Source of the DNA: an uncultured Acidobacteriota bacterium
GTDB lineage: Bacteria > Acidobacteriota > Vicinamibacteria > Fen-336
Direction of reading: 5' to 3'
DNA: 64,000 nucleotides
Assembly: GCA_963729875.1 (NCBI GenBank)
Contig: CAVSPR010000010.1
Location: 77,704-141,703, forward strand
In this document: positions 13,631 to 64,000 of the stretch, one piece after another
How positions within the stretch are numbered: position 1 is the stretch's first letter
Layout: the number at the start of each line of letters is the position of its first letter
The notes under the pieces: model-generated
What the model saw: the letters and a program-made list of their open reading frames with translations, nothing else
Told to the model about the DNA's origin: nothing
The model's database searches: none
Made by a program: the position numbers and the translations under genes

Positions 13631-13645
13631 GGAGAGGAGGGGGCC

Positions 13646-39721: not shown

Positions 39722-40132
39722 ATGGCGGGGGTCCTCGTCGACAGCAACGTCCTCCTCGACGTCCTCACCGAGGACCCGGAGTGGTTCGCCTGGTCCTCGG
39801 AGGCGCTCGCGCGCTGCGCCGACGAGTCGGAGCTCGTCGTCAACCCGATCGTGTACGCGGAGGTGTCCGTCGGCTTCGGCCGGGTCGAGGACGTCGAGTC
39901 CGCCCTGCCCCCGGACGCCTTCATCCGCAGCCCGCTGCCGTGGGACGCGGCCTTCCTGGCCGGGAAGTGCTTCCAGGCCTACCGGCGTCGGGGCGGAGCG
40001 AAGCGTTCGCCGCTCCCCGACTTCTACATCGGCGCGCACGCGGCGGTGGCGGGGCTCTCGCTCCTCACCCGCGACCCCGTGCGGTACCGGACGTACTTCC
40101 CCAGGCTCCGGCTCGTCGCGCCTACTTCGTGA
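39722..40132 (+). CDS. vapC: PIN-domain ribonuclease toxin (VapC-type)
   Basis: 136 aa. VLVDSNVLLDVL (first acidic residue), ..NPIVYAEV.., DFYIGAHAAVAGLSLLTRD (conserved Asp pair context). Starts 4 nt after vapB. Confidence 0.85.
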   Translation: MAGVLVDSNVLLDVLTEDPEWFAWSSEALARCADESELVVNPIVYAEVSVGFGRVEDVESALPPDAFIRSPLPWDAAFLAGKCFQAYRRRGGAKRSPLPDFYIGAHAAVAGLSLLTRDPVRYRTYFPRLRLVAPTS

Positions 40133-44256: not shown

Positions 44257-45464
44257 CGGAAGGACAGGGCCTCGATGGGCTTAATCTTCCCGGCCAGCCA
44301 GGCCGGGTAGACGCCCGCCAGGGCCGACACGCCGACCCCGATCACCAGGCAGAAGACGCCGATCTCGGCCGTGAACGCGGGGTGGATCACCCGGGCGATC
44401 CCGTCCAGCTGGGGTCCCATGTCGATGCCCCTGCGCCCCGCCAGGGCGACGACGAGCGCGCCCAGGGCCACTCCGAAGATCGAGCCGACGAGGCCCGTCA
44501 GCCCCGTCTCGGCCACGACGACGCCGGCGATCCCCCACCGCGACATGCCGATCGAGCGCATGGTCCCGAGCGTGCGGACGCGCTCGAAGACCGCGATCAG
44601 GTGCGTGTTCGCGATCCCCGAGACGACGACGCCGACAATGATCGAGAACAGCACGACGATCACGATGTTCACCCAGACGAGCCCGGCCGCGATCTCGGCG
44701 TAGACGTCGCGCCAGGAGTGCACGGCGAGATGCCGCTTCGCCAGCGGCCCCGCGAGCTCGGCCACCACCCGCGCCGTGTCGTCGGCGTCGCGTAGCCGCA
44801 CCAGCACCGCGGTCACGCTCGACCGCACCTGCAGGAGGCGGCGCACGGTGTCGATGGAGGCCAGCGCGAGGTCCTCGTTCTCCTCGGTCTTGTCGGTCCG
44901 GTAGATCCCGGCCACGACCACGCTCACGGCGTTGAGGCCCCCGTTGGGGTTGTAGGCCAGGAGGGTCAGCCGGTCGCCCACCTTCAGTCCCAGGTAGCGC
45001 GCGAGCCCCCAGCCGAGGACGACGCTTCCGTCGGAGGCCGGGAAGGCGCCGTCCACGATCGCCTGGCGATAGCGTCGGTTCCACGCCGCATCGCCGACGT
45101 CGATGCCACGGAGCATCACCTCCGCGGAGCGCTCGCCGCTCAGCAGCCGGGCCCCGCACGCCAGCTCGACGGTCGCGCCCGACACGTCGGGGCGCCCGCG
45201 CAGCGCTTCGAGGAGGGGCGCGGGGTCGTCGATGGCCAGGTGAACGGGCAGCATCGCGGCCCTCTCGCGGTAGCCCTCCCGCTCCACCGTGACGTGGCCG
45301 ACCGTGTCGAAGGCCAGCTCCATGAACATGCGCCTCATGCCGATGAGGAGCGCGAGCGCAGAGGTGAGCGCGGCGATGCTCAGGGCCATGGCCACGACCA
45401 CGCCCATCGACCTCCGCCGGTCCCGCAGGGCGTGGCGCCAGGCGACCTTCAGAACCATGGCCAT
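44253..45464 (-). CDS. FtsX/MacB-type ABC transporter permease
   Basis: Intact 403 aa with the same architecture. The C-terminal FtsX block is RVRTLGTMRSIGMSRWGIAGVVVAETGLTGLVG. Its stop overlaps the downstream start (ATGA). Confidence 0.85.
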   Translation of the reverse strand: MAMVLKVAWRHALRDRRRSMGVVVAMALSIAALTSALALLIGMRRMFMELAFDTVGHVTVEREGYRERAAMLPVHLAIDDPAPLLEALRGRPDVSGATVELACGARLLSGERSAEVMLRGIDVGDAAWNRRYRQAIVDGAFPASDGSVVLGWGLARYLGLKVGDRLTLLAYNPNGGLNAVSVVVAGIYRTDKTEENEDLALASIDTVRRLLQVRSSVTAVLVRLRDADDTARVVAELAGPLAKRHLAVHSWRDVYAEIAAGLVWVNIVIVVLFSIIVGVVVSGIANTHLIAVFERVRTLGTMRSIGMSRWGIAGVVVAETGLTGLVGSIFGVALGALVVALAGRRGIDMGPQLDGIARVIHPAFTAEIGVFCLVIGVGVSALAGVYPAWLAGKIKPIEALSFR

Positions 45465-50390: not shown

Positions 50391-51209
50391 TCAGATCAGT
50401 CTGCCGAGCTCGGACCCCCGTCTCTCGTTGCGATACTCGGACAGCATCTCCGTCGAGATCTCCACCTTGTCCCGGAGCCACGCGAGCGCCTTGCGGTTGA
50501 ACTCCAGGTACGGCTCGAAGGGAAGGCGGTACCCCAGGGAGTGGATGAGCGACATCACGACGCCCAGGCACACCGGCTGCGCGCGGTAGCTCGTGGCGTA
50601 GTCGGACTTGTGTCCTCCGTCGCCGAGCACGTTCATCTCGTGGAGCTCCTGCGACGTGCTCTTGTGGACGGCGCCCTCGAGCTCCTCCGGGGAGAGGTAC
50701 TTGACGAGATCGAAGAGGTCGTCGCCGACGTAGTCGACCACCGGGTGCTCGAGGGTGATGCCGAACGCGCGATACAGCTGGTCGATCATCTCCAGCCCCT
50801 TGCGCGTCTGGTCGACCCACAGGGCCATGGTGATGTTCGCGCCGTCGAGCACGTGGGCGACGTCGTTGTCGAGGCAGTACATGATCGTCCGCACGTGCAT
50901 CCCCATCCGGCAGTGCAGGCAGAGGGAGGCCTCCATGAGCCCGTGCCGGAGCACGGAGCGGAGCTGCTTCTTCGTCAGGATCTTCTCGATCACCGCCCCG
51001 GCCGGCATCATCACGTGCGTGAAGCGCACGCCCGGGAACGCCTCCCGCAGGCGGGGCACGTTCCGCCCGGCGAACTCGTCCAGGCACGAGACGGGGACCT
51101 CGTAGGTGAGGAGGACGATCTCCTCGAACCGGCCCGACCGGGCGGCCTTGGCGGCGGCGAGCGTGCAGTCGGAGCCGCCGGAGAAGAGCACGACCGCCCT
51201 CGCGCTCAC
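50391..51209 (-). CDS. PP-loop (adenine nucleotide alpha-hydrolase superfamily) ATPase-like protein, function unknown
   Basis: The N-terminal VVLFSGGSDCT resembles the SGGxDS PP-loop. An internal CLHC motif is present. The GTG start overlaps the upstream stop (GTGA). Confidence 0.55.
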   Translation of the reverse strand: MSARAVVLFSGGSDCTLAAAKAARSGRFEEIVLLTYEVPVSCLDEFAGRNVPRLREAFPGVRFTHVMMPAGAVIEKILTKKQLRSVLRHGLMEASLCLHCRMGMHVRTIMYCLDNDVAHVLDGANITMALWVDQTRKGLEMIDQLYRAFGITLEHPVVDYVGDDLFDLVKYLSPEELEGAVHKSTSQELHEMNVLGDGGHKSDYATSYRAQPVCLGVVMSLIHSLGYRLPFEPYLEFNRKALAWLRDKVEISTEMLSEYRNERRGSELGRLI

Positions 51210-51421
51210 GCCGCCCCCCTTCCCGGTTTCGCCTGCTCGATGATGTCGAACATCACGCGAAAGAACTCGTACCGCCTCCAGACCGGCAGCCGGGCGAGGG
51301 CGAGCGCGAACCGGCTCTTCAGCCGGATCGTCGGGATCAGCACGAAGGTCGAGAGGACGAGGAAGCTGAGCGCGGCTCTCCCCACCCTGACCGTCCTGTG
51401 GGGAGAGATCATCTCTTCCAT
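51206..51421 (-). CDS. Small single-TM protein, first gene of the 11-gene operon (hypothetical)
   Basis: 71 aa from the ATG complementary to 51419-51421: MEEMISPHRTVRVGRAALSFLVLSTFVLIPTI... The stop is coupled to the next gene. No recognisable family. Confidence 0.35.
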   Translation of the reverse strand: MEEMISPHRTVRVGRAALSFLVLSTFVLIPTIRLKSRFALALARLPVWRRYEFFRVMFDIIEQAKPGRGAA

Positions 51422-51589
51422 GCTGTGAGCCCCCGCCGGAGGGTTCTCGTGTGCCTCACTGAACGCCCAAGGCGCCGGCAACCTCAATAGTGCAAGTGGA
51501 CTACGCACCGCCGGGGACGGCACGACTCACTGCTATTCTTGGTCCGCCTCGAGTCGCCGTCGGGTGCGCGTGGACGAAGGAGGGCCAGT

Positions 51590-53155
51590 GTGGGCAAGAA
51601 GATGAAGAGCGCGGGACCGCCGCCGGCCCCGCCCGGCACGCCGGTCCCGGCGGCGGGCGCTGCGTCGCGGGCCCTCCTGCTCCTCGCCCCGCTCCTCTCC
51701 GGCGCGGCCATCATGGGGCTCGAGCTCGTCGGCCTCCGGCTCCTCGCCCCGCGCTTCGGCGCCTCGACGTACGTGTGGGGAGGGCTCCTCGGGACGATCA
51801 TGGCGGCGCTCGCCGTCGGCTACCTGCTCGGCGGGGCGCTGGCCGACCGGCGCCCGCGCCCCGCGTGGGTCTTCGGGCTCCTCGTCGCGGGCGGGGCCTG
51901 GGTGGCGGGGAGCCTCCTGGTCACGGAGGCGGTCCTCGACGCGGCCGAGCGGCTCGGCGCCACCCTGGGCCCCCTCCTCGCGACCGGCGTTCTCCTCGGG
52001 CCCCCCATGCTCCTGCTCGGCTCGGTGTCCCCCTTCGTCATCCGGCTCGAGGCCCAGCTCTCCTCCCTCGGGGTCACCGCCGGGCGCGTCTTCGCCCTGT
52101 CGACCGCGGGCAGCCTCGCCGGCACGTTCGTCGCGGCCTTCTGGTGGATCCCGGATTACGGGTGCCGTCACACGCTCCGGATCCTGGTCGCCGCGCTGGT
52201 GGTGCCGGGGATGCTGGGGCTCGCCTGGCCGCGCTCCCGCGCCGCGAGGGCGGCGGCGGCCCTCGTTCTCGCCGCCCTCCCCCTCCTGGCGCCGGACGCG
52301 CCGCTCCCGCCGGGCATCGTCTTCGCCGAGGAGTCCCCCTACAACACCGTCTTCGTCGAGAAGCAGGGAGAGAACACGCTGCTGCGACTCAACGACCCCA
52401 GGCGCGGCTTCCACTCGGTGCAGCTGGGGCGGGGAATGCTCACCGGGGCCTACTACGACGTCCTCTACCTCGGCCCGCTCCTCGCGCAGGGAAGGGACGT
52501 GCTGGTCCTGGGGATGGGCGGAGGGACGACGGTGCGCGCCTACCGCCGCTTCTACCCCGGCGCCCGCGTGAGCGCGGTCGAGATCGACCCCGTGATCGTC
52601 CGGGTCGCGCACGAGTTCATGGGCGTCGCGCGCGGCCCCGACCTCGACGTGCACGTCGAGGATGCCCGGCCGTTCCTGAAGCGGGGGAAGAGCGCCTTCG
52701 ACGTGATCGAGGTCGACCTCTTCGCGGGCGGCCCGTACGCGCCCTTCTACTGCCTGACCCGGGAGTTCTTCGAGGCGGTGCGGGCGCGGCTCGAGCCCTC
52801 CGGCCTCGTCTCGATGAACGTCTACGCGCCCGGCGGCGACCGCACGCTCGCCGAGGCCGTCGTGGCTACCCTGGCCGCGGTGTTTCCCACCGTCCTGGAG
52901 TTCCCGCTCGCCGAGGAGCGGGTGCTGATCGCGTTCAGGGAAGAGACCTCTCTGGATCGGGTCCGCGCGCTTCTCTCCGACCCCGCCCTGCCCGAGGAGC
53001 TCGGAGCCGTCGCGCGTGAAGCGACGGTCGCGCTGCGACCGGCGACGCCCGGCCGCGGGGCCGTTCTGACCGACGACCGCGCCCCCGTCGAGCCGCTGAC
53101 GCACGCGATGATCGTCCGCCGGGACCTCCTTCGCGAAGGGAGCCGTCGGCACTGA
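51590..53155 (+). CDS. Fused membrane domain / spermidine-synthase-like protein (second paralogue in the window)
   Basis: Start is GTG 51590 or ATG 51602. N-terminal TM helices (LLSGAAIMGLELVGLRLLAPRFG). C-terminal domain DVLVLGMGGGTTVRA..VSAVEIDPVIV..FDVIEVDLF..PFYCLTREFFEAVRARLEPSGLV. Confidence 0.8.
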   Translation: MGKKMKSAGPPPAPPGTPVPAAGAASRALLLLAPLLSGAAIMGLELVGLRLLAPRFGASTYVWGGLLGTIMAALAVGYLLGGALADRRPRPAWVFGLLVAGGAWVAGSLLVTEAVLDAAERLGATLGPLLATGVLLGPPMLLLGSVSPFVIRLEAQLSSLGVTAGRVFALSTAGSLAGTFVAAFWWIPDYGCRHTLRILVAALVVPGMLGLAWPRSRAARAAAALVLAALPLLAPDAPLPPGIVFAEESPYNTVFVEKQGENTLLRLNDPRRGFHSVQLGRGMLTGAYYDVLYLGPLLAQGRDVLVLGMGGGTTVRAYRRFYPGARVSAVEIDPVIVRVAHEFMGVARGPDLDVHVEDARPFLKRGKSAFDVIEVDLFAGGPYAPFYCLTREFFEAVRARLEPSGLVSMNVYAPGGDRTLAEAVVATLAAVFPTVLEFPLAEERVLIAFREETSLDRVRALLSDPALPEELGAVAREATVALRPATPGRGAVLTDDRAPVEPLTHAMIVRRDLLREGSRRH

Positions 53156-53413
53156 GGGCCCCGCCCGCTCCTTCGGGGGAGAGAGCGAAAACGTACTCTC
53201 GGTGTACACATACCGTTCCCCCCAGAACCACCAGTGACACGCGAATCACCGGATGAATCATCGGCACCATTGCCCGTAGCAGGGGGGGCCGGTAAAAAGA
53301 GGTGTGTTCCAGTGTCGTGGTGGGGGAGAGGGTTTCGGAGATTCCGCACTCCTTCCCAGGGTTTTCACCTGACAGGAAGATTCGATCGCTCCCCGCCCCC
53401 CAGCGACAATGGA

Positions 53414-53427
53414 CGTTAGCGCTAACG
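53414..53427. promoter_or_regulatory. Perfect 14-bp palindrome CGTTAGCGCTAACG in the leader of the omcS-like gene (candidate operator or RNA hairpin)
   Basis: Self-complementary by inspection. Lies 42 nt upstream of ATG 53469 within a 313-bp comparatively AT-rich intergenic region. Confidence 0.3.
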
Positions 53428-53468
53428 AGTCAGCTGAAAACCCGTCATCTCCAAGGAGAAGCGTACCG

Positions 53469-54602
53469 ATGAAAGCCTACAAACTCCTGATCCTCGCGGC
53501 GGCTGCCGTGCTGGTGACGGGAGCCCCGGCTCTCGCCTTCCACGACGGCGGCGTCGCCGCCTGCAACGGCTGCCACACCATGCACAACAGCTCGAACGGC
53601 CAGCCCATGAACTACAAGGCCGATGGCACGATCGGCGGCACCCCCGTCGGCACCGGCTACACCGACCTGCTCCTCTTCCAGAACAAGTCCGACGTGTGCC
53701 TGCGCTGCCACGGCAACAACACCGCGTCCTACGGCGTGTGGTCGTCCGACCCCGCGGCCCCGAACGTCGTCCGTGCGAACCGGGGCGGCGGCGACTACGT
53801 CTTCCTGCAGGAGGACAACATCAACGACGGCCGCGGCGGCGCCACGAACCCGATCCTGGGTCACGCGGCGGGCCACAGCGTGATCTCCGGCATCAAGGGC
53901 ACGTCCGCCGACCCCGTCCTCACGACGTCCCCCGGCGGCACTTTCGCCGCCGCCAACCTGGCCTGCACGTCCTGCCACGACCCGCACGGCACGGGCTCCT
54001 ATCGGCTGCTGTACCAGTCCGGCCAGAGCGTGAACACCGCGGTCTTCACCAGCACCTTCGACGCCGACGGCATCGCGCTGTCGACCACGGTCGGGGAGTC
54101 GGCCACCAACCACAACGCCTACAAGGGCGGCATCAGCGGCTGGTGCGGCACCTGCCACGGAAACTTCCACGCGAAGTCGGGCAACCTCATCCACCCCTCG
54201 GGCGAGCCCCTGGGCGACGACATCGCGACGGCCTACAACCTCTACAAGGGCACCGCGGACTGCATCGCCAACCCGCCGACGGGAACGCTCCCCTGCGGCA
54301 GCGGCGTCCAGGCCACGGCCTACCTGCCTCAGGTGCCCTTCGCGGACGCCTCAGCGACCATCACGTCCACCGCGGGGCCCACGTCCAACAGCGCTGTGGC
54401 CTGCATCAGCTGCCACCGCGCCCACGCCACCTCGGCGCCGAACGCGGGCCGCTGGGACTTCAACATCCTGGGCATCGCCACGGACGGCAACATCTCGGGC
54501 TCCTACAAGATCCCGAACCCGTACGACGACTACCAGCGCTCGCTGTGCAACAAGTGCCACTCCAAGGACGAGTTCGACGAGCTGGAGGACTTCGTTCCCT
54601 AG
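53469..54602 (+). CDS. omcS: OmcS-family hexahaem c-type cytochrome (candidate nanowire-forming subunit)
   Basis: AGGAG RBS 10 nt upstream of ATG 53469. Signal peptide ..GAPALA then FHDGGVAACNGCHTMHNS. Six CXXCH motifs (CNGCH, CLRCH, CTSCH, CGTCH, CISCH, CNKCH). Blocks SPGGTFAAANLACTSCHDPHG, ISGWCGTCHGNFH, CISCHRAHA and YQRSLCNKCHSKD parallel my recollection of G. sulfurreducens OmcS (FHSGGVAECEGCHTMHNS, ..CSSCHDPHG, ..WCANCH.., ..CLSCHRAHA, YQRALCNKCHAKD). Confidence 0.85.
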   Translation: MKAYKLLILAAAAVLVTGAPALAFHDGGVAACNGCHTMHNSSNGQPMNYKADGTIGGTPVGTGYTDLLLFQNKSDVCLRCHGNNTASYGVWSSDPAAPNVVRANRGGGDYVFLQEDNINDGRGGATNPILGHAAGHSVISGIKGTSADPVLTTSPGGTFAAANLACTSCHDPHGTGSYRLLYQSGQSVNTAVFTSTFDADGIALSTTVGESATNHNAYKGGISGWCGTCHGNFHAKSGNLIHPSGEPLGDDIATAYNLYKGTADCIANPPTGTLPCGSGVQATAYLPQVPFADASATITSTAGPTSNSAVACISCHRAHATSAPNAGRWDFNILGIATDGNISGSYKIPNPYDDYQRSLCNKCHSKDEFDELEDFVP

Positions 54603-54623
54603 AGTCCCGAACTCGAGCGTGTA

Positions 54624-54653
54624 GCCCGGGGCGTGAGCCCCGGGCTTTTTTTT
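54624..54653 (+). terminator. Rho-independent terminator directly after the omcS-like gene
   Basis: GCCCGGGGC-GTGA-GCCCCGGGC (perfect 9-bp GC stem, 4-nt loop) followed by T8. It starts 22 nt after the stop codon. Confidence 0.8.
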
Positions 54654-54686
54654 CGGGCGGACCCCCTCGGGGCGGGGGGAGCGACC

Positions 54687-54709
54687 TGGTGCAAATGGTG
54701 CAAATGGTG
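54687..54709 (+). promoter_or_regulatory. 9-bp direct repeat (TGGTGCAAA x2.6); candidate sigma-54 -24/-12-like element or regulator site ahead of the downstream cluster
   Basis: TGGTGCAAATGGTGCAAATGGTGG. Read as TGGTGCA-N4-GTGCA, it has GG and GC at the spacing of the TGGCACG-N4-TTGCW consensus. It sits between the terminator and the barrel gene. Confidence 0.25.
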
Positions 54710-54795
54710 GAGTGACTCGGGGGCCGTCCCGTGGTCAGAATGGGCCCTCCAGCGGAGCCATGAGGCCGACGCGCGTGCGGGATCACCGACCGACG

Positions 54796-56901
54796 ATGGA
54801 CGTCAGGGGAGCCACCCCGTTGCACCCGGCGTGTGCGGCCTTCCTGCTCGTCTCGCTGGCCGGGCTCGCGTCGCCGGCCCTCCCCGCCGACCTCACCGGA
54901 AGCGCCCTGGTGGCGAACACCTCGACCACTGCCGGCGCCTTCAAGAGCGACCTCCTCGAGCAGCAGTACACGCTGGGCCTCTTCCAGCCGCTGACGCCCT
55001 ACCTCACGGTGCGCGTCGGCTACCAGTACTTCGACCTCGGGACCACGTTCCAGGGCGGCACCTCCTTCACCCGCAGCACGTCGCAGCCCCTGGTCGAGCT
55101 CCTCTACAACCGCGAGGAGCTGTCGGCGCGCGTGGCGGCCTACCAGCTCTCGGTCGACAGCTCGGCCGCGGCGGAGAGCCTGGACCGGCGGTCGCTCGCC
55201 GCCAACCTGAGCTGGAAGTCCTCGTTCGGGCCCGGGTTCAGCGTGGACTTCCGGGACGAGCGCAACGTCGCCGACGTCTCCGCGTTCGGACGGGACGTGA
55301 ACACGCGGCTCCTGGACCTCACGGCCTTCTACAACCGCCGGCACTGGTCCGCCAGCTACACCTACGAGACCCTCACCGTCGACAACCAGTCGAACGCCTT
55401 CCGGAGCGATCAGGACCGGCACGAGGCCCGCCTGAGCGCGCAGCGTTCGTTCTGGGCCGATCGTCTCTCGGTGGGGCTGTCCGGGCAGGCCAGCCTCCTC
55501 GGCCGCACGACAGGGATCGGCGAGGAGGCGGAGCTCGCCGAGCCCGTTCCCGCCGCCGCCGGCCTCTTCGCCGTCGACGCCTCGCCGGAGATCGGCGAGC
55601 TCGTGAGCAGCCCTACTCTCGTCGACGGGGACGCCGTCACACCGGCCTCGCCTCCGGTCGAGATCGGGGGGGCGAGCACGTTCCGCAACGTCGGGGTCGA
55701 CCTGGGCGTGACCCGCCCGATCACCCGCCTGGAGATCGCGACGGACGTCGTCTCCGGCCCGTCCGTCGTCTGGCAGGTCTACCGCAGCCGGGACAACCTG
55801 TTCTGGGAGGCGGTCTCCGGGGCCACCTCGACCTTCGATTCGGGACTCCTGCGGTACCGCATCCTCTTCCCCCAGACCGAGGACCGGTTCTTCAAGGCCG
55901 TGAACGTCTCCGTCAATGCGGCGTCCGCGGTGCGCGTCACCGAGGTCCGGGCCCTGCTGGACCGGGCGGCGACGGCCTTCGCCGAGGACTCCGACGACAG
56001 CCTCTACCGGGGCGACGTGATCCTGGGCTTCAATCCCTCCCGGAGGGTGAGCATGGCCGTGGGCTTCGGGGCGAGCTCGGACGAGACGCTGGCCGCCGGC
56101 CTCGTGCGCCGCGACTACGAAGACGTGCACGCCCAGGCGCGCCTCTCGGTCATCCTCGCCCGGGACCTCGACCTCAACCTGGGGTACCGCTACAACGACT
56201 CCGCGAACCGGGCCGATCCGGTGCTGCTGCGGACCGTGAACCACTACAGCGCGAACCTGGTCTGGAAACCCCTCCCGACCGTGGACGCCGCCCTCACCGT
56301 CGGCCGCCGGGACGAGTCCGAGAAGGCGACTCTCCTGCAGTCACAGGACTCCGTCCGCCTCGGCGTGAGCTTTCAGCTCCTGGAGGACCTGCGCTACATG
56401 ACGAACTTCGACGTCTCGCGGCTCGCGGATCCCTTCGAGGGGCGCGACCGCAACAGCTGGACCTGGACCCACACCCTGGAGATGCGCCCCCTCCCGGCGT
56501 GGGACGTCTCCGGCAGCCTCACGCTCTCCCGCAACGAGACGTTCGCCGGCGAGCCCCTCCTCGACCGGACCCAGTACCAGCTCTGGACGACCTGGAACCC
56601 CACCTCGTACCTCTCGCTGAGCGGCAACTGGTGGTACACCGACGACGGCGGGCGGGGCTCCCTCAACCAGAGCTACAACCTCTCGTACGCGCCCGGGGAC
56701 CGGCTCACGGTCTCGGCCACGTACCAGGGGTACGAAGACGCCGGGGGCTTCCAGACGTCGACCGACAGCCTCAGCGCGACCTATCGCCTGTTCATGCAGT
56801 TCCTCCTCTTTGCTAACCTCTCGAGGTCGACGAGCGAGGGCACCCAGGGCGAGAGCACCCGGGTGTCCAACTTCCGAGCGGGCCTCCAGCTCGCCTTCTA
56901 G
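54796..56901 (+). CDS. Large outer-membrane beta-barrel protein with an internal discoidin (F5/8 type C)-like domain
   Basis: The start is uncertain (ATG 54796 gives a signal-like ..AAFLLVSLAGLASPALPA). Alternating beta-strand pattern (YLTVRVGYQYFDL, LSARVAAYQLSVD, WSASYTYETLTVD ...). The C-terminus ends ..NFRAGLQLAF. The central segment about 55560-55965 (FRNVGVDLGVTRPITRLEIA..VVWQVYRSRDNLFWEAV..) looks like a soluble jelly-roll domain. Confidence 0.6.
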   Translation: MDVRGATPLHPACAAFLLVSLAGLASPALPADLTGSALVANTSTTAGAFKSDLLEQQYTLGLFQPLTPYLTVRVGYQYFDLGTTFQGGTSFTRSTSQPLVELLYNREELSARVAAYQLSVDSSAAAESLDRRSLAANLSWKSSFGPGFSVDFRDERNVADVSAFGRDVNTRLLDLTAFYNRRHWSASYTYETLTVDNQSNAFRSDQDRHEARLSAQRSFWADRLSVGLSGQASLLGRTTGIGEEAELAEPVPAAAGLFAVDASPEIGELVSSPTLVDGDAVTPASPPVEIGGASTFRNVGVDLGVTRPITRLEIATDVVSGPSVVWQVYRSRDNLFWEAVSGATSTFDSGLLRYRILFPQTEDRFFKAVNVSVNAASAVRVTEVRALLDRAATAFAEDSDDSLYRGDVILGFNPSRRVSMAVGFGASSDETLAAGLVRRDYEDVHAQARLSVILARDLDLNLGYRYNDSANRADPVLLRTVNHYSANLVWKPLPTVDAALTVGRRDESEKATLLQSQDSVRLGVSFQLLEDLRYMTNFDVSRLADPFEGRDRNSWTWTHTLEMRPLPAWDVSGSLTLSRNETFAGEPLLDRTQYQLWTTWNPTSYLSLSGNWWYTDDGGRGSLNQSYNLSYAPGDRLTVSATYQGYEDAGGFQTSTDSLSATYRLFMQFLLFANLSRSTSEGTQGESTRVSNFRAGLQLAF

Positions 56902-56912
56902 GACGGTCAGAC

Positions 56913-57500
56913 ATGAGCCAATGCGCTTCCGTCGCCTCCCTCCTCCTCCCGGCCGCGCTGGGCCTCGGCGCCTGTGGCGGCACGATGAAGGCCACGCAGT
57001 TCACCAACCCGAAGTTCGACTTCGCCTTCGTCCAGAGGGTGGCGGTCCTGCCGTTCGACAACGAGAGCATCGACCGCCAGGCCGGCTCCCGGGCCACGCG
57101 CCTCGCGATCACCGAGCTTCTGGCCACCGGGGCGGTGGACGTGGTCGAGCCGGGCGAGGTGCAGGCCGCGCTCGTCAAAGTCGCCGGGGCCGTCTCCGGA
57201 CGCCCGGTCGCCCCGAGCACCGAGCAGATCCTCGCGCTGGGCAAGGCCCTGAACGTACAGGCGCTCCTCCTCGGTAGCGTCACCCAGTCGGAGAACCTGC
57301 GCTCGGGCGCCGTGCCCATCCCGGTGGTGACCGTCGACCTGCACCTCGTCGAGACCGAGACGGGCGCCACGGTCTGGGCCACGACCCACAGCGAGAAGGG
57401 GGGCAGCCTCGAGGCCCGTGTGCTCGGGACCGGCGGCGAGCCCATCGCGGAGACGACCCGCCGGTGCGTGCACGAGGCCCTCAAGACGCTGGTCAAGTAG
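56913..57500 (+). CDS. Lipoprotein with a TolB-N/LpoB/CsgG-like alpha-beta domain
   Basis: Lipobox LGLGAC. VAVLPFDNESIDRQAGSRATRLAITELLATGAVDVVEPGEV.. and ..ALLLGSVT.. resemble small OM-anchored scaffold lipoproteins. Confidence 0.6.
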   Translation: MSQCASVASLLLPAALGLGACGGTMKATQFTNPKFDFAFVQRVAVLPFDNESIDRQAGSRATRLAITELLATGAVDVVEPGEVQAALVKVAGAVSGRPVAPSTEQILALGKALNVQALLLGSVTQSENLRSGAVPIPVVTVDLHLVETETGATVWATTHSEKGGSLEARVLGTGGEPIAETTRRCVHEALKTLVK

Positions 57501-57510
57501 CGGGTCCCGC

Positions 57511-58590
57511 GTGAACCTCAGGTCAACTCTCGCCGCCGCTGCCGTCCTGCTGGCCGCTGCGTCGGCGGCCCCGGGGGGCGGCACGGCCGCCGCGGACGCG
57601 CGCGCGGTCGCGCTCTTCCCCGTGCAGGACCGGGCGGGCGACCCCGCGGCCGCCGCCGCGGTCGGCGAGGCGCTGCGGAGCGAGCTGGGCCGCCTCGGCC
57701 GTCTCGTCGGCCCGGGCGAGACGCGGGACGCGCTGCGCCGGCTGCGCATCCGGAACGGGGACCGCATCACCCCCCAGCTCCTGCGCCAGCTCGGCCGCGA
57801 GCTGGCGGCCGACTGGCTGGCCTCGGCCACGCTGCACGAGGCCGACCGGAGCCTGGTGCCCGGCCTGACCCTTTCGGTCCGGCTCTACTCGAGCGAGACC
57901 GGGGAGCTCGTCTTCTCGGGCTTCCGCGGGGAGAGCGGCCTCGATCGGCGGAAGCTGCTCGGGCTCGGGGTGATCGCCGGGATCGAGGATCTCACCCCCC
58001 TCGTGGCCCGCGATCTCCTGCGAGATCTCCCGCTCGTGGCAGACGGCGCGGGGGCCGCGCGCCCCCGCGAGCCGCGCCGGAGCCGGCTCGGCACCGTCGC
58101 CGTCGTCCCCTTCACCGGCTCGACCGCCTTTCAGCCCACGTTGAGCGCCGAGGCCGTCACCGAGGCCGTTCACGCCCGTCTCTTCGCCGACGGCGTTTCC
58201 GTGGTCTCGCCGAACCGCTTGTACGACGTCCTGCGCCGGCTCCAGGGCGGCCAGTGGGGCGGCGTCACCTCGCAGACACTTGCCGCCCTCGAGCGCACCG
58301 CGTCGGCCGACACGATCCTCACCGGCACGGTCGAGACCTGGGACCTCGGGGGCGGGGAAGCCGAGCCGGAACCGGAGGTCGCGGTCGCCCTTCGGCTGCT
58401 GGAGGCCTCGACCGGCCGCATACTGTGGACGGGCGCCTCGGAGCGCCGAGGCTGGGACGGCCAGGGCCTTTTCCGCCGCGGGCGCGTCCACTCCCGGGGA
58501 GCCCTGACCGCGCGAGTGATAGAGGACCTCGCCCGCCGTCTCGACCGGGACGGCATCGAGGTCGCTCCCCGAACCGAAGGACGACGATGA
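57511..58590 (+). CDS. Secreted protein with two copies of the same lipoprotein-like domain
   Basis: GTG start at 57511 with a signal peptide. The two halves each carry V(A/V)L/VPF..., ...TG.V..W pattern (AVALFPVQDRAGD.. and VAVVPFTGSTAF..ILTGTVETWD). The stop overlaps the next start (ATGA). Confidence 0.5.
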   Translation: MNLRSTLAAAAVLLAAASAAPGGGTAAADARAVALFPVQDRAGDPAAAAAVGEALRSELGRLGRLVGPGETRDALRRLRIRNGDRITPQLLRQLGRELAADWLASATLHEADRSLVPGLTLSVRLYSSETGELVFSGFRGESGLDRRKLLGLGVIAGIEDLTPLVARDLLRDLPLVADGAGAARPREPRRSRLGTVAVVPFTGSTAFQPTLSAEAVTEAVHARLFADGVSVVSPNRLYDVLRRLQGGQWGGVTSQTLAALERTASADTILTGTVETWDLGGGEAEPEPEVAVALRLLEASTGRILWTGASERRGWDGQGLFRRGRVHSRGALTARVIEDLARRLDRDGIEVAPRTEGRR

Positions 58591-60320
58591 CACCGAGATC
58601 CTTGCTCGCCGCCACGCTCCCGCTCCTGCTTGTCCTGGCTGGAGAGCCAGGGCTTGCCCTGGCCGCGCAAGCCCAACCGGCGTCCCCCGCGGCGCCGGAG
58701 CCCGGCGTCATCGCCCAGGTGAACGGGGAGCCCGTCTACCTGGAGGATCTCGAGAACCTGCTGGAGCAGAAGCACAGCGGCGCCGCGGAAGGCCGGCGGA
58801 GCCGGCCCGACCTGAACCAGCTGATGTTCCGGCTCGTCAACGACACGCTCCTGGCCCAGGAGGCCCGCGCGCTGGGGATGGACGAGGATGACCCCATCCC
58901 CTCCCGGCTGGCGGCCCGACGCGAGAGTCTCGCGACCGCCCGCCTCGAGAGCGAGGAGATCTGGAGCCGGGCCGAGGCCACCGACGAGGAGGTCCAGCAG
59001 GCCTTCGCCGAGCAGTACCGCAGGATCACGTTCCGGATCCTCACGGTCCGCGAGCGGCCGAAGGCCGAGGCCCTGCGCGGGCAGATCGAGAAGGGGGCCG
59101 ACATCGGCGCCCTCGCGAAGGAGATCTCGATGGACCCGTACGGGCCGAAGGGAGGCCTTGTCGAGAACCTCGCGAGGATCGACACCCCGAACGAGTTCGC
59201 GGCCGCCCTGTTCGCCCTCGAGCCCGGCGCCCTCGCGGGACCCCTGGTCACCCGCCTCGGCTACAGCGTCGCGCGGGTCGAGTCGCTCGCGCCCGCCGAC
59301 CCCGCGCGGCTGGAGAAGCTGAAGCCGTCGCTGCGGACCTTCGTGCGCTTCCGCAAGGCGGACGCCCTCCGTGCCGACCTCGGCGCGCGCCTGCGCGCCG
59401 CGCACAAGGTCTCGATCGACGAGTCGGTGCTCGCGGCGATCGTCCCCGAGCGGCTCCCCGACGGGAGGCTCATGCCGAAGGTCGAGAGCCGCGACGCCGT
59501 CGTCGCCCGCGTCGCCGAGCGCACGATCACCGCGGGAAAGCTCGGTCAGACCCTCGGCCGGCGGTGGGGAGGGGTGGCGAACGAGGAGGCCGCCCTCGCG
59601 GCGAAGCCCATCGTCCTCGATCGCCTGGTCGAGGGGGAGCTGATGGTGGCCGAGGCCCTGGCCCGCGGCTATGGGGACACGAAGGAGGCCAAACGCGCGC
59701 TGCACGCCGCCCAGACCCAGCTTCTCGCCCCGCGCTTCCTGAGCCAGGTGGTGGCCGCGGAGATCCGGGTCACGCCGGAGGAGACGGCCGCCTGGTACGA
59801 GCGGAACAAGGAGAGCTACCACCGGCCGCCGCGGCTGCACCTGCGCCAGATGACGGTGGCCACCGAGGCGGAGGCGCAGCGCCTCGCCGCCCTCGTGCGG
59901 CAGGGCGCGGACTTCGGCTGGCTCGCGCGCCAGCACTCGACGGACGGCTACAAGGAGAGCGGCGGAGACAAGGGCTGGGCCACCCCCAAGGGGACGGGCG
60001 AGGCTCTCGAGGCCGCCCTCTTCGACGCGAAGCCGGGGGACGTGCTCGGGCCCCACCCCGCTCCGGAGGGCTTCACCGTCGTGCGGGTCGAGGCCCGGGA
60101 AGAGCAGGGGATCTACGACTACGGCGAGGTCTCGGGGAACGTGCGCAAGGTCCTCGAGGACCAGAAGCGCCAGCAGGCGATCGACGCGGTGATCCAGAAG
60201 CTGCGGGGGCGATCGAAGATCGAGGTGTACGACGACCGGGTCGCGGCGCTGGCGATCAGCGTGGCCCCGGCCGCCGAGGCGGCGCCGTCCCACGTCGCGC
60301 CGCCGAGACCCGAGCCCTAG
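58587..60320 (+). CDS. SurA/PpiD-like periplasmic chaperone with two parvulin PPIase domains
   Basis: Signal peptide and an N-terminal SurA-like helical region (IAQVNGEPVYLEDLENLL). Two parvulin blocks (ADIGALAKEISMDPYGPKGGLV...GYSVARVES and ADFGWLARQHSTDGYKESGGDKGW...GFTVVRVEA). Confidence 0.8.
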   Translation: MTPRSLLAATLPLLLVLAGEPGLALAAQAQPASPAAPEPGVIAQVNGEPVYLEDLENLLEQKHSGAAEGRRSRPDLNQLMFRLVNDTLLAQEARALGMDEDDPIPSRLAARRESLATARLESEEIWSRAEATDEEVQQAFAEQYRRITFRILTVRERPKAEALRGQIEKGADIGALAKEISMDPYGPKGGLVENLARIDTPNEFAAALFALEPGALAGPLVTRLGYSVARVESLAPADPARLEKLKPSLRTFVRFRKADALRADLGARLRAAHKVSIDESVLAAIVPERLPDGRLMPKVESRDAVVARVAERTITAGKLGQTLGRRWGGVANEEAALAAKPIVLDRLVEGELMVAEALARGYGDTKEAKRALHAAQTQLLAPRFLSQVVAAEIRVTPEETAAWYERNKESYHRPPRLHLRQMTVATEAEAQRLAALVRQGADFGWLARQHSTDGYKESGGDKGWATPKGTGEALEAALFDAKPGDVLGPHPAPEGFTVVRVEAREEQGIYDYGEVSGNVRKVLEDQKRQQAIDAVIQKLRGRSKIEVYDDRVAALAISVAPAAEAAPSHVAPPRPEP

Positions 60321-60336
60321 GAGAGCGTCGCGAACC

Positions 60337-62280
60337 ATGAGAGCGATCATGCGGAGACCATCGAGGATCGGCCTGGCGGCGGCGCTCGCTGCCGTGGGCC
60401 TCGGCGCCGGCGTCGCCCACGGCCAGCTGAAGAAGGGGGCGCGCTTCGAGAAAGGCGGCTCCTGCGTCGAGTGCCACGCCGACGTGGGCAAGGCGCGCAA
60501 GGTGCCGCACGCCCCCATGGCCCAGGGCGACTGCACGGTCTGCCACAAGCCCCACGGCCTGGTCGGCGCCCTGCGACTGCAGTCGGAGGAGCCGAAGCTG
60601 TGCCTCGGCTGCCACCAGGCGGCGGCGCTCGGGCTCGAGGCGGCGCACCGCCACCCCGAGGTGGACAAGTGCTCTCGGTGCCACGACCCGCACGGCTCCG
60701 ACCACGCGAAGATCCTGAGGACCGCCGCGCGTGAGCTCTGCACGAGCTGCCACAAGGACGGCGGGTTCGGGGGGAAGGTCGTCCACGCCCCGGTGGGCGA
60801 GGGCTGCCTCACCTGCCACCGGCCGCACGGGTCGGCCGAGGCCTCTCTCCTCGCCCAGCCCGGTGAGACCCTCTGCACCTCCTGCCACGACGGGTCGAAC
60901 GGTTTCGCCGCGGCCCACGGGGGCTTTTCGGTGGCTGGAGCGAAGTGCGCGTCCTGCCACCCGCCCCACTCCGCGGCCAGCGACCACCTGCTCCGGGCCT
61001 CGGTGCACCCTGCCCTCGAGTGCGGCACCTGCCACGAGCAGGCAACGCGCACGGCCGCCCCGGCCGCCGGCGCCGGCGTGTGCTTGAACTGCCACGAGAA
61101 GCCCGAGGCCGGCAAGGGCAGCCTGCACCCGCCGGCCGCCGAGGGGGACTGCCTGACCTGCCACGACCCCCACACGAGCGACTTTGCCCCGGTGCTGGTC
61201 GGCGCCCAATCGACCCTGTGCGTCGGCTGCCACGACGACGTGGGGAAAGCGCTCGCGGGCAGCCATCCCCACAAGGCCGCCTCGGAGTGCACGGACTGCC
61301 ACAAGGGGCACCGCTCCGACCGCCCGAACCTGCTGAAGGCCGACGGCCGAGCCCTCTGCGTAGGCTGCCATGAGGACCCGGCGAAGAAAGCGGGCGCCGC
61401 CCTCGTTCACGCCCCGGCCGCCGGCGAGTGCACGGCGTGCCACGCGCCTCACGGGACGGGTCGCAAGGCCCTGCTCACCGCCGCCCAGGGCGACCTCTGC
61501 GGGGCCTGTCACTCCGACGTCGGGGCCCGCTCGGGCCTGCCCGTCCTCCACGCCCCGGTGACCCAGGGCGAGTGCGCCGCCTGCCACGAGCCCCACGCGG
61601 GGCCCGCGAAGCTCCTCCGGGCCACGGGCCGGGCGCTCTGCATCCGCTGCCACGATGGGATGCTCAAGGGGACCGACGGCCTCCCGCAGCACGAGCCCTT
61701 CAAGGCGGGCGACTGCGACACCTGCCACCCGCCCCACGCGTCGGAGACGCCGAAGCTCCTCAAGGCCCCGGAGGGCACCCTCTGCCGGGGCTGCCACGAC
61801 GTCCCGGACGCGGCGCCGGCCGGGGGGTCCCTGCACGCGGTCGCCCGCGACCGCTGCACAGGGTGCCACCAGCCCCACGCGAGCGCCACGGCCCACTTCC
61901 TGATGGCCCCGGCGCGGCCCCTCTGCGTCACCTGCCACAAGGAGATCGGCGAGCGGCTCGAGAAAGAGACGGTGCACCCGCCGGCCGGGCAGGACGACGG
62001 CTGTCTGGGCTGCCACCGCCCGCACACCGCAGCCGAGCCCCACCTGCTGCAGGCGTCCGTGTCGAAGACCTGCCTGGGCTGTCACGACGGCACGACACCA
62101 AAGTTCGCGGAGAAGCACCTCGGCTTCCCGCCCGAGGGAATGAACTGCGGGGAGTGCCACGACCCGCACGCTTCACGCGTGGCGGGGATGCTCCTGCCCG
62201 AGACGCACCCGCCGTTCGTCGGGGGGGACTGCACCACGTGCCACACGGGGCCCCGTCCGAAGCAGGAGGGTGCGCGATGA
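60337..62280 (+). CDS. 26-haem periplasmic c-type cytochrome built from about 13 tandem dihaem (paired CXXCH) modules
   Basis: Signal peptide ..GAGVAHG. I counted 26 CXXCH motifs, alternating CxxCH(D/E/K/Q) and CxxCH(P/K/G)PH types about every 24 aa. Confidence 0.9.
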   Translation: MRAIMRRPSRIGLAAALAAVGLGAGVAHGQLKKGARFEKGGSCVECHADVGKARKVPHAPMAQGDCTVCHKPHGLVGALRLQSEEPKLCLGCHQAAALGLEAAHRHPEVDKCSRCHDPHGSDHAKILRTAARELCTSCHKDGGFGGKVVHAPVGEGCLTCHRPHGSAEASLLAQPGETLCTSCHDGSNGFAAAHGGFSVAGAKCASCHPPHSAASDHLLRASVHPALECGTCHEQATRTAAPAAGAGVCLNCHEKPEAGKGSLHPPAAEGDCLTCHDPHTSDFAPVLVGAQSTLCVGCHDDVGKALAGSHPHKAASECTDCHKGHRSDRPNLLKADGRALCVGCHEDPAKKAGAALVHAPAAGECTACHAPHGTGRKALLTAAQGDLCGACHSDVGARSGLPVLHAPVTQGECAACHEPHAGPAKLLRATGRALCIRCHDGMLKGTDGLPQHEPFKAGDCDTCHPPHASETPKLLKAPEGTLCRGCHDVPDAAPAGGSLHAVARDRCTGCHQPHASATAHFLMAPARPLCVTCHKEIGERLEKETVHPPAGQDDGCLGCHRPHTAAEPHLLQASVSKTCLGCHDGTTPKFAEKHLGFPPEGMNCGECHDPHASRVAGMLLPETHPPFVGGDCTTCHTGPRPKQEGAR

Positions 62281-63527
62281 GAGCCAACGGGAGAACCCTC
62301 GCGCTCACGCTCGCTGGGGTGGTCGGCCTCTTCGGTGCCGCCCCCGCCGCGGAGGCCCAGCACACGGCCGGGAGCCAGGTCGACCAGAAGGCCGTCTGCC
62401 TGTCCTGCCACGACCTCGAAGACCTGAAGGCGAAGGTCACCCACGCACCGGCGGCAGCGGGGGAGTGCAGCGCCTGCCACAACCCCCACGTCGCGCGTTT
62501 CAAGAAGCTGCTCCGCGATCGCCCCGCGCCCCTGTGTGCCCGCTGCCACGAGTCGGTGCAGGCCCAGCTGGCGCGCAAGACCGTGCACCGGCCGGTCGCC
62601 GACGGCAAGTGCGCCTCCTGCCACCGGCCGCACGGCAGCCCGAACGAGGGCCTGCTGGTCGCCCCGAGCCGGGACCTCTGCGCCACGTGCCACGCCGACG
62701 TGACGGACTGGAAGGGGCGGAAGGTCCAGCACGCCCCCTTCGCCCAGGGGCGCTGCGCCACGTGCCACGACCCGCACGCGAGCGACGCCCCGGGGCTGCT
62801 CACCCGGGGTGGGGCCGGCCTCTGCGGCAGCTGCCACAAGGTCGATGCCACCCTGCGCGCGCGGCACAAGGGCTACCCGGTCGAGAAGGCGGCCTGCCAG
62901 CAGTGCCACGACCCCCACGCCTCGGCCCGCCCGGGGCTCTTCCGCGAGTCGCTCCACGCCCCATTCGAGAGCGGCGACTGCACCACCTGCCACCGCGGGC
63001 CGGGGGCGGCCGACCCCTTCGCCACCCTCAAGCCCGTCAACGCCCTCTGCGCCGACTGCCACGGCGACGTGGTCGAGGCGTCGCACAAGACGGCCTTCCC
63101 CCACGTGACCGGCGGGGGCTGCACGGCGTGCCACAACCCGCACACCGGCGACGGTCGCGCGCTGCTCCGCAAGCCGCCGCAGGCCCTGTGCACGACGTGC
63201 CACGACCCCGGTGGCTCGAAGTCCGGGGAGAAGGGGCGCCACGCGACCCACGCCGGCTTCGAGTGCACGAAGTGCCATGCGGGCCACGGGGGCCAGCAGC
63301 CGCTGTTCTTCGTCTCGGACTCGATCGAGCTGTGCGCGGGCTGCCACAAGCACGAGCACGGCGTCAGCCACCCGGTCGGCGAGAAGAGCCGCGACCCGAG
63401 GACCGGGGAGCCCATGACGTGCCGCTCCTGTCACGGGATCCACCGCGCCGACGGCGAGAAGTATCTCTTCGAGGCCGACCAGAGGACGCTGTGCCTCGGC
63501 TGCCACAAGGACCTGCGAGGACGCTAA
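62277..63527 (+). CDS. 16-haem c-type cytochrome (paired CXXCH modules)
   Basis: The ATG overlaps the upstream stop (ATGA). Signal peptide ..AAPAAEAQ. I counted 16 CXXCH motifs. Confidence 0.9.
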   Translation: MRANGRTLALTLAGVVGLFGAAPAAEAQHTAGSQVDQKAVCLSCHDLEDLKAKVTHAPAAAGECSACHNPHVARFKKLLRDRPAPLCARCHESVQAQLARKTVHRPVADGKCASCHRPHGSPNEGLLVAPSRDLCATCHADVTDWKGRKVQHAPFAQGRCATCHDPHASDAPGLLTRGGAGLCGSCHKVDATLRARHKGYPVEKAACQQCHDPHASARPGLFRESLHAPFESGDCTTCHRGPGAADPFATLKPVNALCADCHGDVVEASHKTAFPHVTGGGCTACHNPHTGDGRALLRKPPQALCTTCHDPGGSKSGEKGRHATHAGFECTKCHAGHGGQQPLFFVSDSIELCAGCHKHEHGVSHPVGEKSRDPRTGEPMTCRSCHGIHRADGEKYLFEADQRTLCLGCHKDLRGR

Positions 63528-63529
63528 CG

Positions 63530-64000
63530 ATGAACCGACCGATCACTCTCCTGCTGGCTGCCGGGGCGGTGGTGGGCCTCGCCGGCGCCCGTCCCGTCCG
63601 TGCCCAGGTCAGCCCGCCCCGGGTGCTCGCCTTCCAGGAGGCGCTCAAGGGGACCGAGGCGGCCTCCCTCCGCTGTCCGCTGGCCGTCGCCGCCGCTTCC
63701 GACGACGAGGTGGCGGTCGCCGACGCCTCCGGCCCCCGCCTCCTGCGCTTCCGCAAGGTCGGCGTGTCGTGGCAGCTCGACCGCACCGTCCCGATGGGGG
63801 GAGCCCCGGCCGGCCTCGCCTGGGACGGGCGACGCTACGTCGCCTCGCTCCGGCAGAACGCGGGCCTCGTGGCCTTCGAGGGCCCGGAGCTCGCCCAACG
63901 CCGCCTGCCCCTCCCGCGCGGCGTCGTCCCCGGGGCGCTGGCCGCGGGGCCGGCCGGCGGCCTGCTCCTCTACGACGCCGCGAAGCGCAGCGTGCTGCGC
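63530..64000 (+). CDS. Secreted NHL-repeat/beta-propeller-like protein, 3' end outside the window
   Basis: ATG lies 2 nt after the upstream stop. Signal peptide MNRPITLLLAAGAVVGLAGARPVRAQ. Short repeats of the type P.GLAWDGRRYVA.. and ..VAVADASGPRLLRF are consistent with NHL blades. Only about 157 aa are visible. Confidence 0.45.
   Translation, partial: MNRPITLLLAAGAVVGLAGARPVRAQVSPPRVLAFQEALKGTEAASLRCPLAVAAASDDEVAVADASGPRLLRFRKVGVSWQLDRTVPMGGAPAGLAWDGRRYVASLRQNAGLVAFEGPELAQRRLPLPRGVVPGALAAGPAGGLLLYDAAKRSVLR

Follow-up and report, generated by a model that had tools for sequence, protein, structure and literature searches.

An OmcS-family hexahaem cytochrome gene at the head of an osc-like gene cluster in an uncultured Acidobacteriota bacterium

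Organization of the Locus

The DNA analysed here is a 64,000-nucleotide stretch (hereafter the window) of contig CAVSPR010000010.1 from an uncultured Acidobacteriota bacterium (assembly GCA_963729875.1). It was found to carry a single hexahaem cytochrome gene, followed on the same strand by a terminator-like hairpin and by a block of genes similar to the osc genes that accompany the filament-forming cytochrome OmcS in Geobacter (Table 1). The gene product is a Sec-exported hexahaem c-type cytochrome and a homologue of OmcS over its whole length. An alternative, longer open reading frame (ORF) start at 53409 contributes a non-signal leader only.

Table 1. Features of the hexahaem cytochrome gene, its product and the downstream block (positions in the window; AF2, AlphaFold2; L081, L082 and L083, related metagenomic loci; histidine counts from the 69-sequence family alignment)
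Feature	Position	Strand	Evidence and remarks
Sigma-70-like promoter candidate GTGACA-16-AATCAT	53234–53261	+	consensus match only
Shine-Dalgarno sequence AAGGAG	53453–53458	+	10 nt 5′ of ATG; kept in L083
OmcS-family hexahaem c-type cytochrome precursor	53469–54602 (ATG–TAG)	+	377 aa, mature 354 aa; phmmer, AF2/Foldseek, six CXXCH
Sec signal peptide, 23 aa, ...APALA/FH	53469–53537	+	query residue 24 aligned (HMMER) to mature OmcS residue 1
Codon of mature His16	53583–53585	+	in register with OmcS His16
Fifth haem motif CISCH (mature C289–H293)	54402–54416	+	counterpart of OmcS C328–H332; His in 69/69
H2 (OmcS numbering)			69/69
H16 (OmcS numbering)			66/69
H110 (OmcS numbering)			68/69
H147 (OmcS numbering)			68/69
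H257 (OmcS numbering)			69/69
H335 (OmcS numbering)			69/69
Intrinsic-terminator-like hairpin and T8	54623–54653	+	stem 54623–54632/54637–54646, loop GTGA, T8 at 54646–54653
9-bp tandem repeat (2.7 copies), then GTGACT-18-CAGAAT	54688–54741	+	between terminator and OscE-like gene, 34 nt past terminator
OscE-like large outer-membrane beta-barrel	54796–56901	+	701 aa, signal peptide, C-terminal ...LQLAF; AF2, position, Geomonas match
OscF-like lipoprotein	56913–57500	+	195 aa, lipobox LGAC; 33% identity to Geomonas counterpart, E 3e-31; weak CsgG match
OscG-like protein, two OscF-like domains	57511–58590	+	359 aa; 25% identity to Geomonas counterpart, E 4e-12; weak LpoB/FlgO matches
OscH-like periplasmic parvulin-type prolyl isomerase/chaperone	58587–60320	+	577 aa; Rotamase_2 E 1.7e-30; SurA_N-like N-terminal part
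OscI-like cytochrome	60337–62280	+	647 aa, exactly 26 CXXCH; Paired_CXXCH_1 E 2.7e-122
OscJ-like cytochrome	62277–63527	+	416 aa, 16 CXXCH; Pfam match; same-sized gene at same position in L081, L082
NHL-repeat (beta-propeller) protein, start only	63530–64000	+	gene cut by window end; 70% identity to post-block NHL protein of L081

Comparison of the Hexahaem Protein with OmcS

In a phmmer search against all PDB chains, OmcS from Geobacter sulfurreducens (6EF8/6NEF) was the single relative found (E 1.5e-32), and the match consisted of three collinear stretches that jointly covered OmcS residues 1–407, i.e., the entire chain. A tblastn comparison of OmcS with the window showed 30.8% identity over 429 columns (E 2.6e-41); the OmcS reference sequence used was checked to be identical to 6EF8_A across 407 aa. 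Besides, an AlphaFold2 model of the hexahaem protein built from 108 homologues (predicted local distance difference test, pLDDT, 80.2; predicted template modelling score, pTM, 0.78) gave 6EF8_A as its sole match in a Foldseek search of PDB (E 1.4e-17, template modelling (TM) score 0.67/0.63, 29% identity), in agreement with the published uniqueness of the OmcS fold, which resembles nothing except its own homologues (PMC9473688). Searches of Pfam and NCBIfam with this protein returned generic multihaem domains only.

The predicted signal sequence MKAYKLLILAAAAVLVTGAPALA is followed by the mature N-terminus FHDGGVAACNGCHTMH, which was placed by HMMER in register with that of the 6EF8 chain (FHSGGVAECEGCHTMH), mature residue 1 on residue 1. 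Cleavage by signal peptidase I would thus leave Phe1-His2 as the mature N-terminus, and a Phe-His mature start was present in 65 of the 69 members of the family alignment, which comprised OmcS, the window protein and 67 translations from fetched loci. The six CXXCH motifs of the window protein (CNGCH at mature position 9, CLRCH at 54, CTSCH at 143, CGTCH at 203, CISCH at 289 and CNKCH at 337) were collinear with the OmcS motifs at 9, 47, 140, 239, 328 and 400, and the fifth, extended as CISCHRAHA, aligned to C328-L-S-C331-H332-RAHA of OmcS. A preliminary description of this DNA, made from the sequence alone, had assigned the protein to the OmcS family on the basis of six CXXCH motifs in OmcS order and a histidine at mature position 16 after an ALA/FH cut. 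The searches bear out this assignment, with all motif histidines aligned with those of OmcS, His16 in register and the haem-5 CXXCH (OmcS C328–H332) likewise conserved. Lack of a His16 equivalent, named in that description as a ground for refutation, was not observed.

The similarity to OmcS (GSU2504) includes the N-terminal pattern FH.GGVA.C.GCHTMH, all 12 histidines discussed below, the haem-5 motif CxSCHRAHA, the C-terminal CNKCH.KD and the fold, and it extends to the gene surroundings, with a terminator-like hairpin 3′ of the gene and osc-type genes downstream. In contrast to OmcS (407 aa), however, the mature window protein comprises 354 aa and has shorter loops, contains an extra pair of cysteines (C242/C253, nearly invariant in its clade) and a clade-invariant His192, and ends in an acidic tail of 10 residues, EFDELEDFVP, after CNKCH.KD. 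The residues that have no OmcS equivalent are thus His192 (in NHNAY), C242/C253 around an inserted loop, and the tail at 342–354 (KD-EFDELEDFVP) after haem 6. The C242/C253 pair probably forms a disulfide.

Haem-ligand Histidines and His16

Exactly six near-invariant histidines were found outside the CXXCH motifs in the 69-sequence alignment (H2, H16, H110, H147, H257, and H335 in OmcS numbering; Table 1). H2, H16, H113, H150, H219, and H296 of the mature window protein align to these positions, and its six motif histidines align to OmcS H13, H51, H144, H243, H332, and H404. Six distal and six motif histidines make up the 12 ligands needed for six bis-His haems, and the window protein thus retains 12 out of 12. 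His16 (H39 of the precursor) was invariant among the 108 closer homologues. We take His16, paired with His332, to be the trans ligand of haem 5 in OmcS, in keeping with the residue numbers of the fifth motif in 6EF8. The distal histidine of haem 5 in OmcS is supplied by the adjoining monomer, and ligation is thus part of polymerisation (PMC7096707, PMC9473688). As His16 lies three residues from His13, the ligand of haem 1, it would be unable to reach haem 5 of its own protomer in cis if the haems form a linear chain like that of OmcS (cf. PMC7096707).

As 66 of the 69 members keep His16, including Geobacteraceae paralogues without known polymerisation, this residue is taken to be necessary but is not diagnostic. 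Its use as a marker separating wire-formers from other family members was therefore rejected. In the published view, OmcS cannot be told by sequence from paralogues that do not form wires (PMC12977616).

Only three members lacked the His16 equivalent (L054, ORF +905; L045, ORF –18412; L057, ORF +9793), and all three were extra paralogues in Geobacterales/Geobacteraceae genomes. These could be non-polymerising or chain-capping variants.

Family Size and Phylogenetic Placement

Among the candidates examined, the family comprised 2,429 proteins at E ≤ 1e-5; counted as representatives of clusters at 50% identity, 770 were found at E ≤ 1e-3, 308 at ≤ 1e-10 and 60 at ≤ 1e-30. In a neighbour-joining tree, the window protein grouped with two paralogous copies from one Acidobacteriota metagenome-assembled genome (MAG; 57% and 56% identity), and this group fell inside a clade of short proteins (323–354 mature residues) from Acidobacteriota and phyla of the Fibrobacteres–Chlorobi–Bacteroidetes (FCB) group. 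The short clade was separate from the whole OmcS/OmcT/OscC radiation of Desulfuromonadia. The possibility that the window protein is a specific OmcS orthologue was consequently rejected, as it falls outside this entire radiation. For the cytochrome and also for the barrel encoded downstream, those close relatives that carry a name came from Thermoanaerobaculia or Acidobacteriota MAGs, by which the likely lineage is a Thermoanaerobaculia-like one within Acidobacteriota.

The position of the gene resembles that of oscC (GSU2501), since in both cases a hexahaem gene lies immediately 5′ of the assembly block. The OscC type has been proposed to be ancestral to OmcS and always to accompany the eight-gene block (PMC12977616). 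However, the Geomonas gene at the OscC position abuts the gene for the OscD propeller without a hairpin, whereas the window gene is followed by a strong terminator and no OscD gene, and the tree places the window protein no nearer to the Geomonas paralogue in the OscC position than to OmcS itself. Other cytochrome filaments, i.e., OmcE and the archaeal filaments of P. calidifontis and A. veneficus, share with OmcS the trans-subunit His ligation, an insulated haem chain and a large barrel gene nearby (PMC9473688; bioRxiv 10.1101/2025.10.22.684050), but these are tetrahaem proteins without sequence or fold likeness and were not detected in the phmmer and Foldseek searches of PDB made here.

The osc-like Block

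In G. sulfurreducens, the members of the osc (omcS companion) operon, as given in papers citing Shen et al. 2025 (PMC13194489, PMC12977616), are omcS, omcT, oscC (GSU2501, an OmcS-like hexahaem cytochrome) and OscD to OscJ. The same papers assign OscD to morphology, OscE, OscF and OscG to secretion and OscH to folding, and together with bioRxiv 10.1101/2025.10.22.684050 they tie the osc genes to folding, secretion and morphology of OmcS. The gene letters used here were mapped from these accounts and from a Geomonas silvestris locus (L048), which contains two OmcS paralogues, a YncE-like propeller (13122–14525), a barrel-like protein of 762 aa, lipoproteins of 199 and 388 aa, a prolyl isomerase of 600 aa and a multihaem cytochrome. 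The Pfam and NCBIfam matches of the neighbour proteins included no Osc-specific model.

By gene order and sequence, the window is judged to carry an osc-type cluster collinear with the Geobacter osc operon. When set beside the Geobacter operon (PMC13194489 and PMC12977616, after Shen et al., 2025, Cell Chem Biol), E, F, G, H, I, and J are collinear and the terminal NHL protein is shared, whereas the window contains no OscD (a YncE-like propeller), no second, OmcT-like paralogue and no upstream NHL gene, and has a gene for a fused major facilitator superfamily (MFS)/spermidine synthase upstream instead. A tblastn search recovered the order hexahaem-E-F-G-H-I at about 25 loci, which belonged to Acidobacteriota, Krumholzibacteria, Zixibacteria, Ignavibacteria, Fibrobacteria, Desulfosudis, Deferrisomatales, and Desulfuromonadia including Geomonas; the block was present beside OmcS homologues in at least six phyla. 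Three nearer metagenomic relatives (L081–L083; 70–75% identity) showed the same order and matching gene sizes.

The individual products are consistent with this assignment. The OscE-like protein was modelled by AlphaFold2 as an all-beta protein (pLDDT 91.7) with about 30 long strands, mostly forming a barrel, and an inserted domain, and it showed 23% identity over 613 aa (E 7e-9) to the product of the Geomonas silvestris gene at the same position; some of its homologues have OMP_b-brl or Porin_4 matches. The Geomonas counterpart of the OscF-like lipoprotein matches GNA1162-like and LpoB, the OscH-like protein matched its Geomonas silvestris counterpart at E 6e-21, and the OscI-like cytochrome was 35–61% identical to cytochromes at the same position in other loci. 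For comparison, GSU2495/OscI is a protein of about 70 kDa with 26 haems (PMC12977616).

The inserted domain of the OscE-like protein (residues ~245–390) is a confidently modelled all-beta insert that interrupts the strand series, and near-invariant residues such as W326, D333, W337, Y354, K367, and N370 are concentrated in it; as modelled, it could be a plug or a subunit-docking domain. Both domains of the OscG-like protein resemble the OscF-like lipoprotein (LpoB/CsgG-like), and the same cross-match is repeated in Geomonas, which suggests that OscG-like proteins may have arisen by internal duplication.

The barrel, together with the two large multihaem cytochromes of periplasmic type encoded beside it, bears on another possible role of the hexahaem protein, namely that of a surface-exposed, non-polymerising terminal reductase of a porin-cytochrome conduit. 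In such a conduit the OscE-like barrel would sheathe the 26-haem cytochrome (cf. MtrB/MtrA) and the hexahaem protein would dock on the outside as a monomer or small oligomer (cf. MtrC). Similar clusters from Thermoanaerobaculia and other Acidobacteriota have been interpreted in this way (PMC8528874; bioRxiv 10.64898/2026.05.27.727921). The reading is supported, though weakly, by a search of PDB with the barrel model, in which MtrB from the Mtr complex ranked first (6R2Q_B, E 1.4e-9). Like MtrCAB, the window combines genes for multihaem cytochromes with one for a large outer-membrane barrel. However, the TM score of the MtrB match was just 0.36–0.39 and TonB-type barrels scored nearly equal, so that the match indicates a large barrel and nothing more specific. 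The hexahaem protein showed no similarity to MtrC or OmcA beyond the haem motifs, its sole fold match being the OmcS filament subunit, and the window contains no MtrC/OmcA-type decahaem cytochrome, whereas its lipoprotein and prolyl-isomerase genes are without mtr counterparts. Moreover, trans ligation would explain the conserved His16 and the presence of exactly six distal histidines, and homologues of OscF, OscG and OscH indicate a function in assembly and secretion (PMC13194489). A conduit reductase is thus regarded as an unlikely role for the hexahaem protein when set beside that of a filament subunit.

Terminator and Transcription

The hairpin downstream of the hexahaem gene (AGCCCGGGGC-GTGA-GCCCCGGGCT) comprises 10 bp, nine of which are G:C. 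Folding of the RNA gave –33.4 kcal/mol (z = –4.07), and none of 200 shuffled sequences was equally stable. Across both strands of the window (72.3% GC), no run of six or more T or A occurs apart from the T8 tract, which is therefore not considered a chance feature. Hairpins with T-rich tracts were present at the matching site in L081, L082 and L083, with a common CCCGGGG core but different flanks and loops, and of 30 more distant loci, 17 had terminator-like hairpins of unrelated sequence at the matching site. In Geomonas, a hairpin lies 3′ of the paralogue nearest to OmcS (55–56% identity) and not of the paralogue that abuts oscD. A perfect 9-bp GC hairpin with T8 at 22 nt after the stop codon had been pointed out in the preliminary description, and a 9-bp GC stem does begin at the 22nd nt past the stop codon. 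The same description took the gene to be very highly expressed and transcribed separately from its accessory genes; judged from the layout of the DNA, both may be the case.

In a promoter scan of positions 51000–63000, the sigma-70-like candidate upstream of the hexahaem gene was the sole match, compared with 0.1 expected from shuffled sequences, and this region was partly conserved in L083. Between the terminator and the OscE-like gene, L082 and L083 retain the GGTGCAAAT repeats, and the shorter spacer of L081 lacks the whole element; the hexamer pair GTGACT-18-CAGAAT that follows them was identical in L083 only and scored 8/12, which is under the threshold of the promoter scan. No other copy of the GGTGCAAAT repeat was found in the window, and with three mismatches allowed there were two matches compared with 0.39 expected, which is weak statistically; the stronger evidence is that L082 and L083 keep the repeats. 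The segment at 54688–54741 may be an operator or promoter candidate for the assembly genes. A search of the whole window against Rfam at gathering thresholds gave no match, and no GEMM-type or other known riboswitch was found in the leader of about 200 nt.

This layout would fit a strongly transcribed subunit gene followed by assembly genes that are attenuated or separately driven. A comparable arrangement of subunit and assembly genes is known from fimbrial operons.

Prediction of an OmcS-type Filament

We propose, with somewhat better than even confidence, that the product of the hexahaem gene is the major subunit of an extracellular cytochrome filament of the OmcS type, made by a high-GC diderm bacterium. 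The proposal draws on the homology to OmcS, the complete ligand set and the terminator-like hairpin, and it is strengthened by the fact that the gene heads a collinear osc block. After cleavage of the signal peptide at ALA/FH, the haems would be attached in the periplasm, where the prolyl isomerase would aid folding of the subunit, which would then be passed through, or mounted on, the complex of barrel and lipoproteins. Head-to-tail polymerisation would follow, with His16 acting as the sixth ligand of haem 5 in the next protomer and thereby creating a continuous chain of bis-His haems, and the 26-haem and 16-haem periplasmic cytochromes would supply the filament with electrons. As regards stoichiometry, the hairpin would let the subunit transcript greatly exceed the transcripts of the assembly genes, which could be transcribed by read-through of the terminator or from the element at 54688–54741.

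Several observations weigh against this proposal. The identity to OmcS is only about 30%, the mature chain is 53 residues shorter, and the conserved acidic tail stands right after haem 6, at the would-be protomer interface. The one member proven to form a wire, OmcS itself, lies outside the short clade. Both Geomonas paralogues keep His16, and in Geobacter OmcS is the sole proven wire, the roles of OmcT, OmcJ and OscC/GSU2501 being uncharacterised (PMC12977616). Codon bias does not set the hexahaem gene apart from its neighbours (effective number of codons 30.0 compared with 28–34 for 14 other genes), a measure that is uninformative at 72% GC. No gene was present between the hexahaem and OscE-like genes in the window or in L081–L083, and a tblastn search of the window for OscD gave nothing at E 1e-2. 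However, as the nearest Acidobacteriota relatives also lack OscD, its absence is read as a clade variant and not as a gap in the sequence assembly. Finally, the position directly upstream of the osc block is the OscC/GSU2501 slot and not the omcS slot, and one table of predictions places OscC in the periplasm (PMC13194489).

This slot, with the periplasmic listing and the uncharacterised role of its Geobacter occupant, would also suit a protein that is merely related to OmcS, either a soluble periplasmic hexahaem electron carrier or an enzyme whose haem 5 is five-coordinate, comparable to OscC/GSU2501, OmcT and OmcJ; family membership by itself is no proof of polymerisation (PMC12977616). However, this is the sole hexahaem gene in the window and in the recovered stretches of its closest relatives, so that the assembly genes would be left without another client. 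The terminator fits an abundant structural product, and the Geomonas hairpin follows the OmcS-nearest paralogue, not the one in the oscC position. Besides, if haem 5 of a monomer were unligated, no role would be left for the near-invariant His16. We consider a soluble carrier or enzyme to be improbable, and a filament subunit remains the preferred assignment.

Relation to Published Work and Significance

OmcS homologues have been reported from phylogenetically diverse bacteria (Portela, 2024; PMC10954620), the osc machinery has been called 'widespread and ancient' (Shen, 2025, as cited in PMC12977616 and PMC13194489), and six-haem OmcS-like genes beside genes for a barrel and periplasmic cytochromes have been described in Thermoanaerobaculia MAGs (PMC8528874). 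The novelty of the locus is therefore modest and was overstated by implication in the preliminary description, since reports of both the homologues and the machinery as widespread already exist. Taken as genomics, the locus contributes little; the finding is a correct identification of a further OmcS-type example.

The short clade was widespread, with members in Acidobacteriota, Krumholzibacteria, Zixibacteria, Ignavibacteria, and Fibrobacteria, and the extra Cys pair was found in the window's own subclade. We tentatively suggest, at slightly less than even confidence, that proteins of this clade (~330–355 mature residues with an acidic tail) and their minimal osc machinery without OscD form a structurally distinct type of cytochrome nanowire. 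Located at the haem-6 end, the conserved tail could change the contact between protomers or serve as an assembly signal. If this suggestion is true, nanowire-based extracellular respiration would, in a testable form, reach abundant soil and sediment phyla beyond Desulfuromonadia.

If the window protein polymerises, a compact OmcS-type wire and its full assembly operon would be present on one stretch of about 10.5 kb in a lineage (Acidobacteriota and relatives) whose members abound in soils and sediments and are difficult to grow in culture, and the cluster would be a convenient candidate for heterologous reconstruction and cryo-electron microscopy. It could also be used to ask whether the osc genes suffice for assembly when OscD is missing, and whether a conserved His16 is predictive of polymerisation. 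The latter question has been flagged in the field as unresolved (PMC12977616).

Other Genes in the Window

The fused MFS/spermidine synthase gene (NF037959, 175 bits; 51539–53155, plus strand) lies directly upstream of the cytochrome gene. A gene with a spermine-synthase domain also adjoins the hexahaem gene in L082 and L083, where it is divergent, and in L040 a homologue on the same strand precedes it by about 3.4 kb.

A GatE/GatD pair predicted to form an archaeal-type Glu-tRNA(Gln) amidotransferase was found at 36047–38017 and 38014–39402, both on the plus strand. GatE scored 378 bits (TIGR00134 cut-off 319.55) and GatD 490.7 bits (TIGR02153 cut-off 324). GatDE is generally held to be an archaeal signature. 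The rest of the window is diderm-like, with LolA-like, MacB/FtsX, SurA-like and outer-membrane barrel genes; the LolA-like protein and two MacB/FtsX-type permeases are encoded at 42241–45464 (minus strand). On either side of the GatE/GatD pair, a GAF-GGDEF diguanylate cyclase is encoded at 33786–35993 and a PIN-domain protein at 39722–40132, both on the plus strand.

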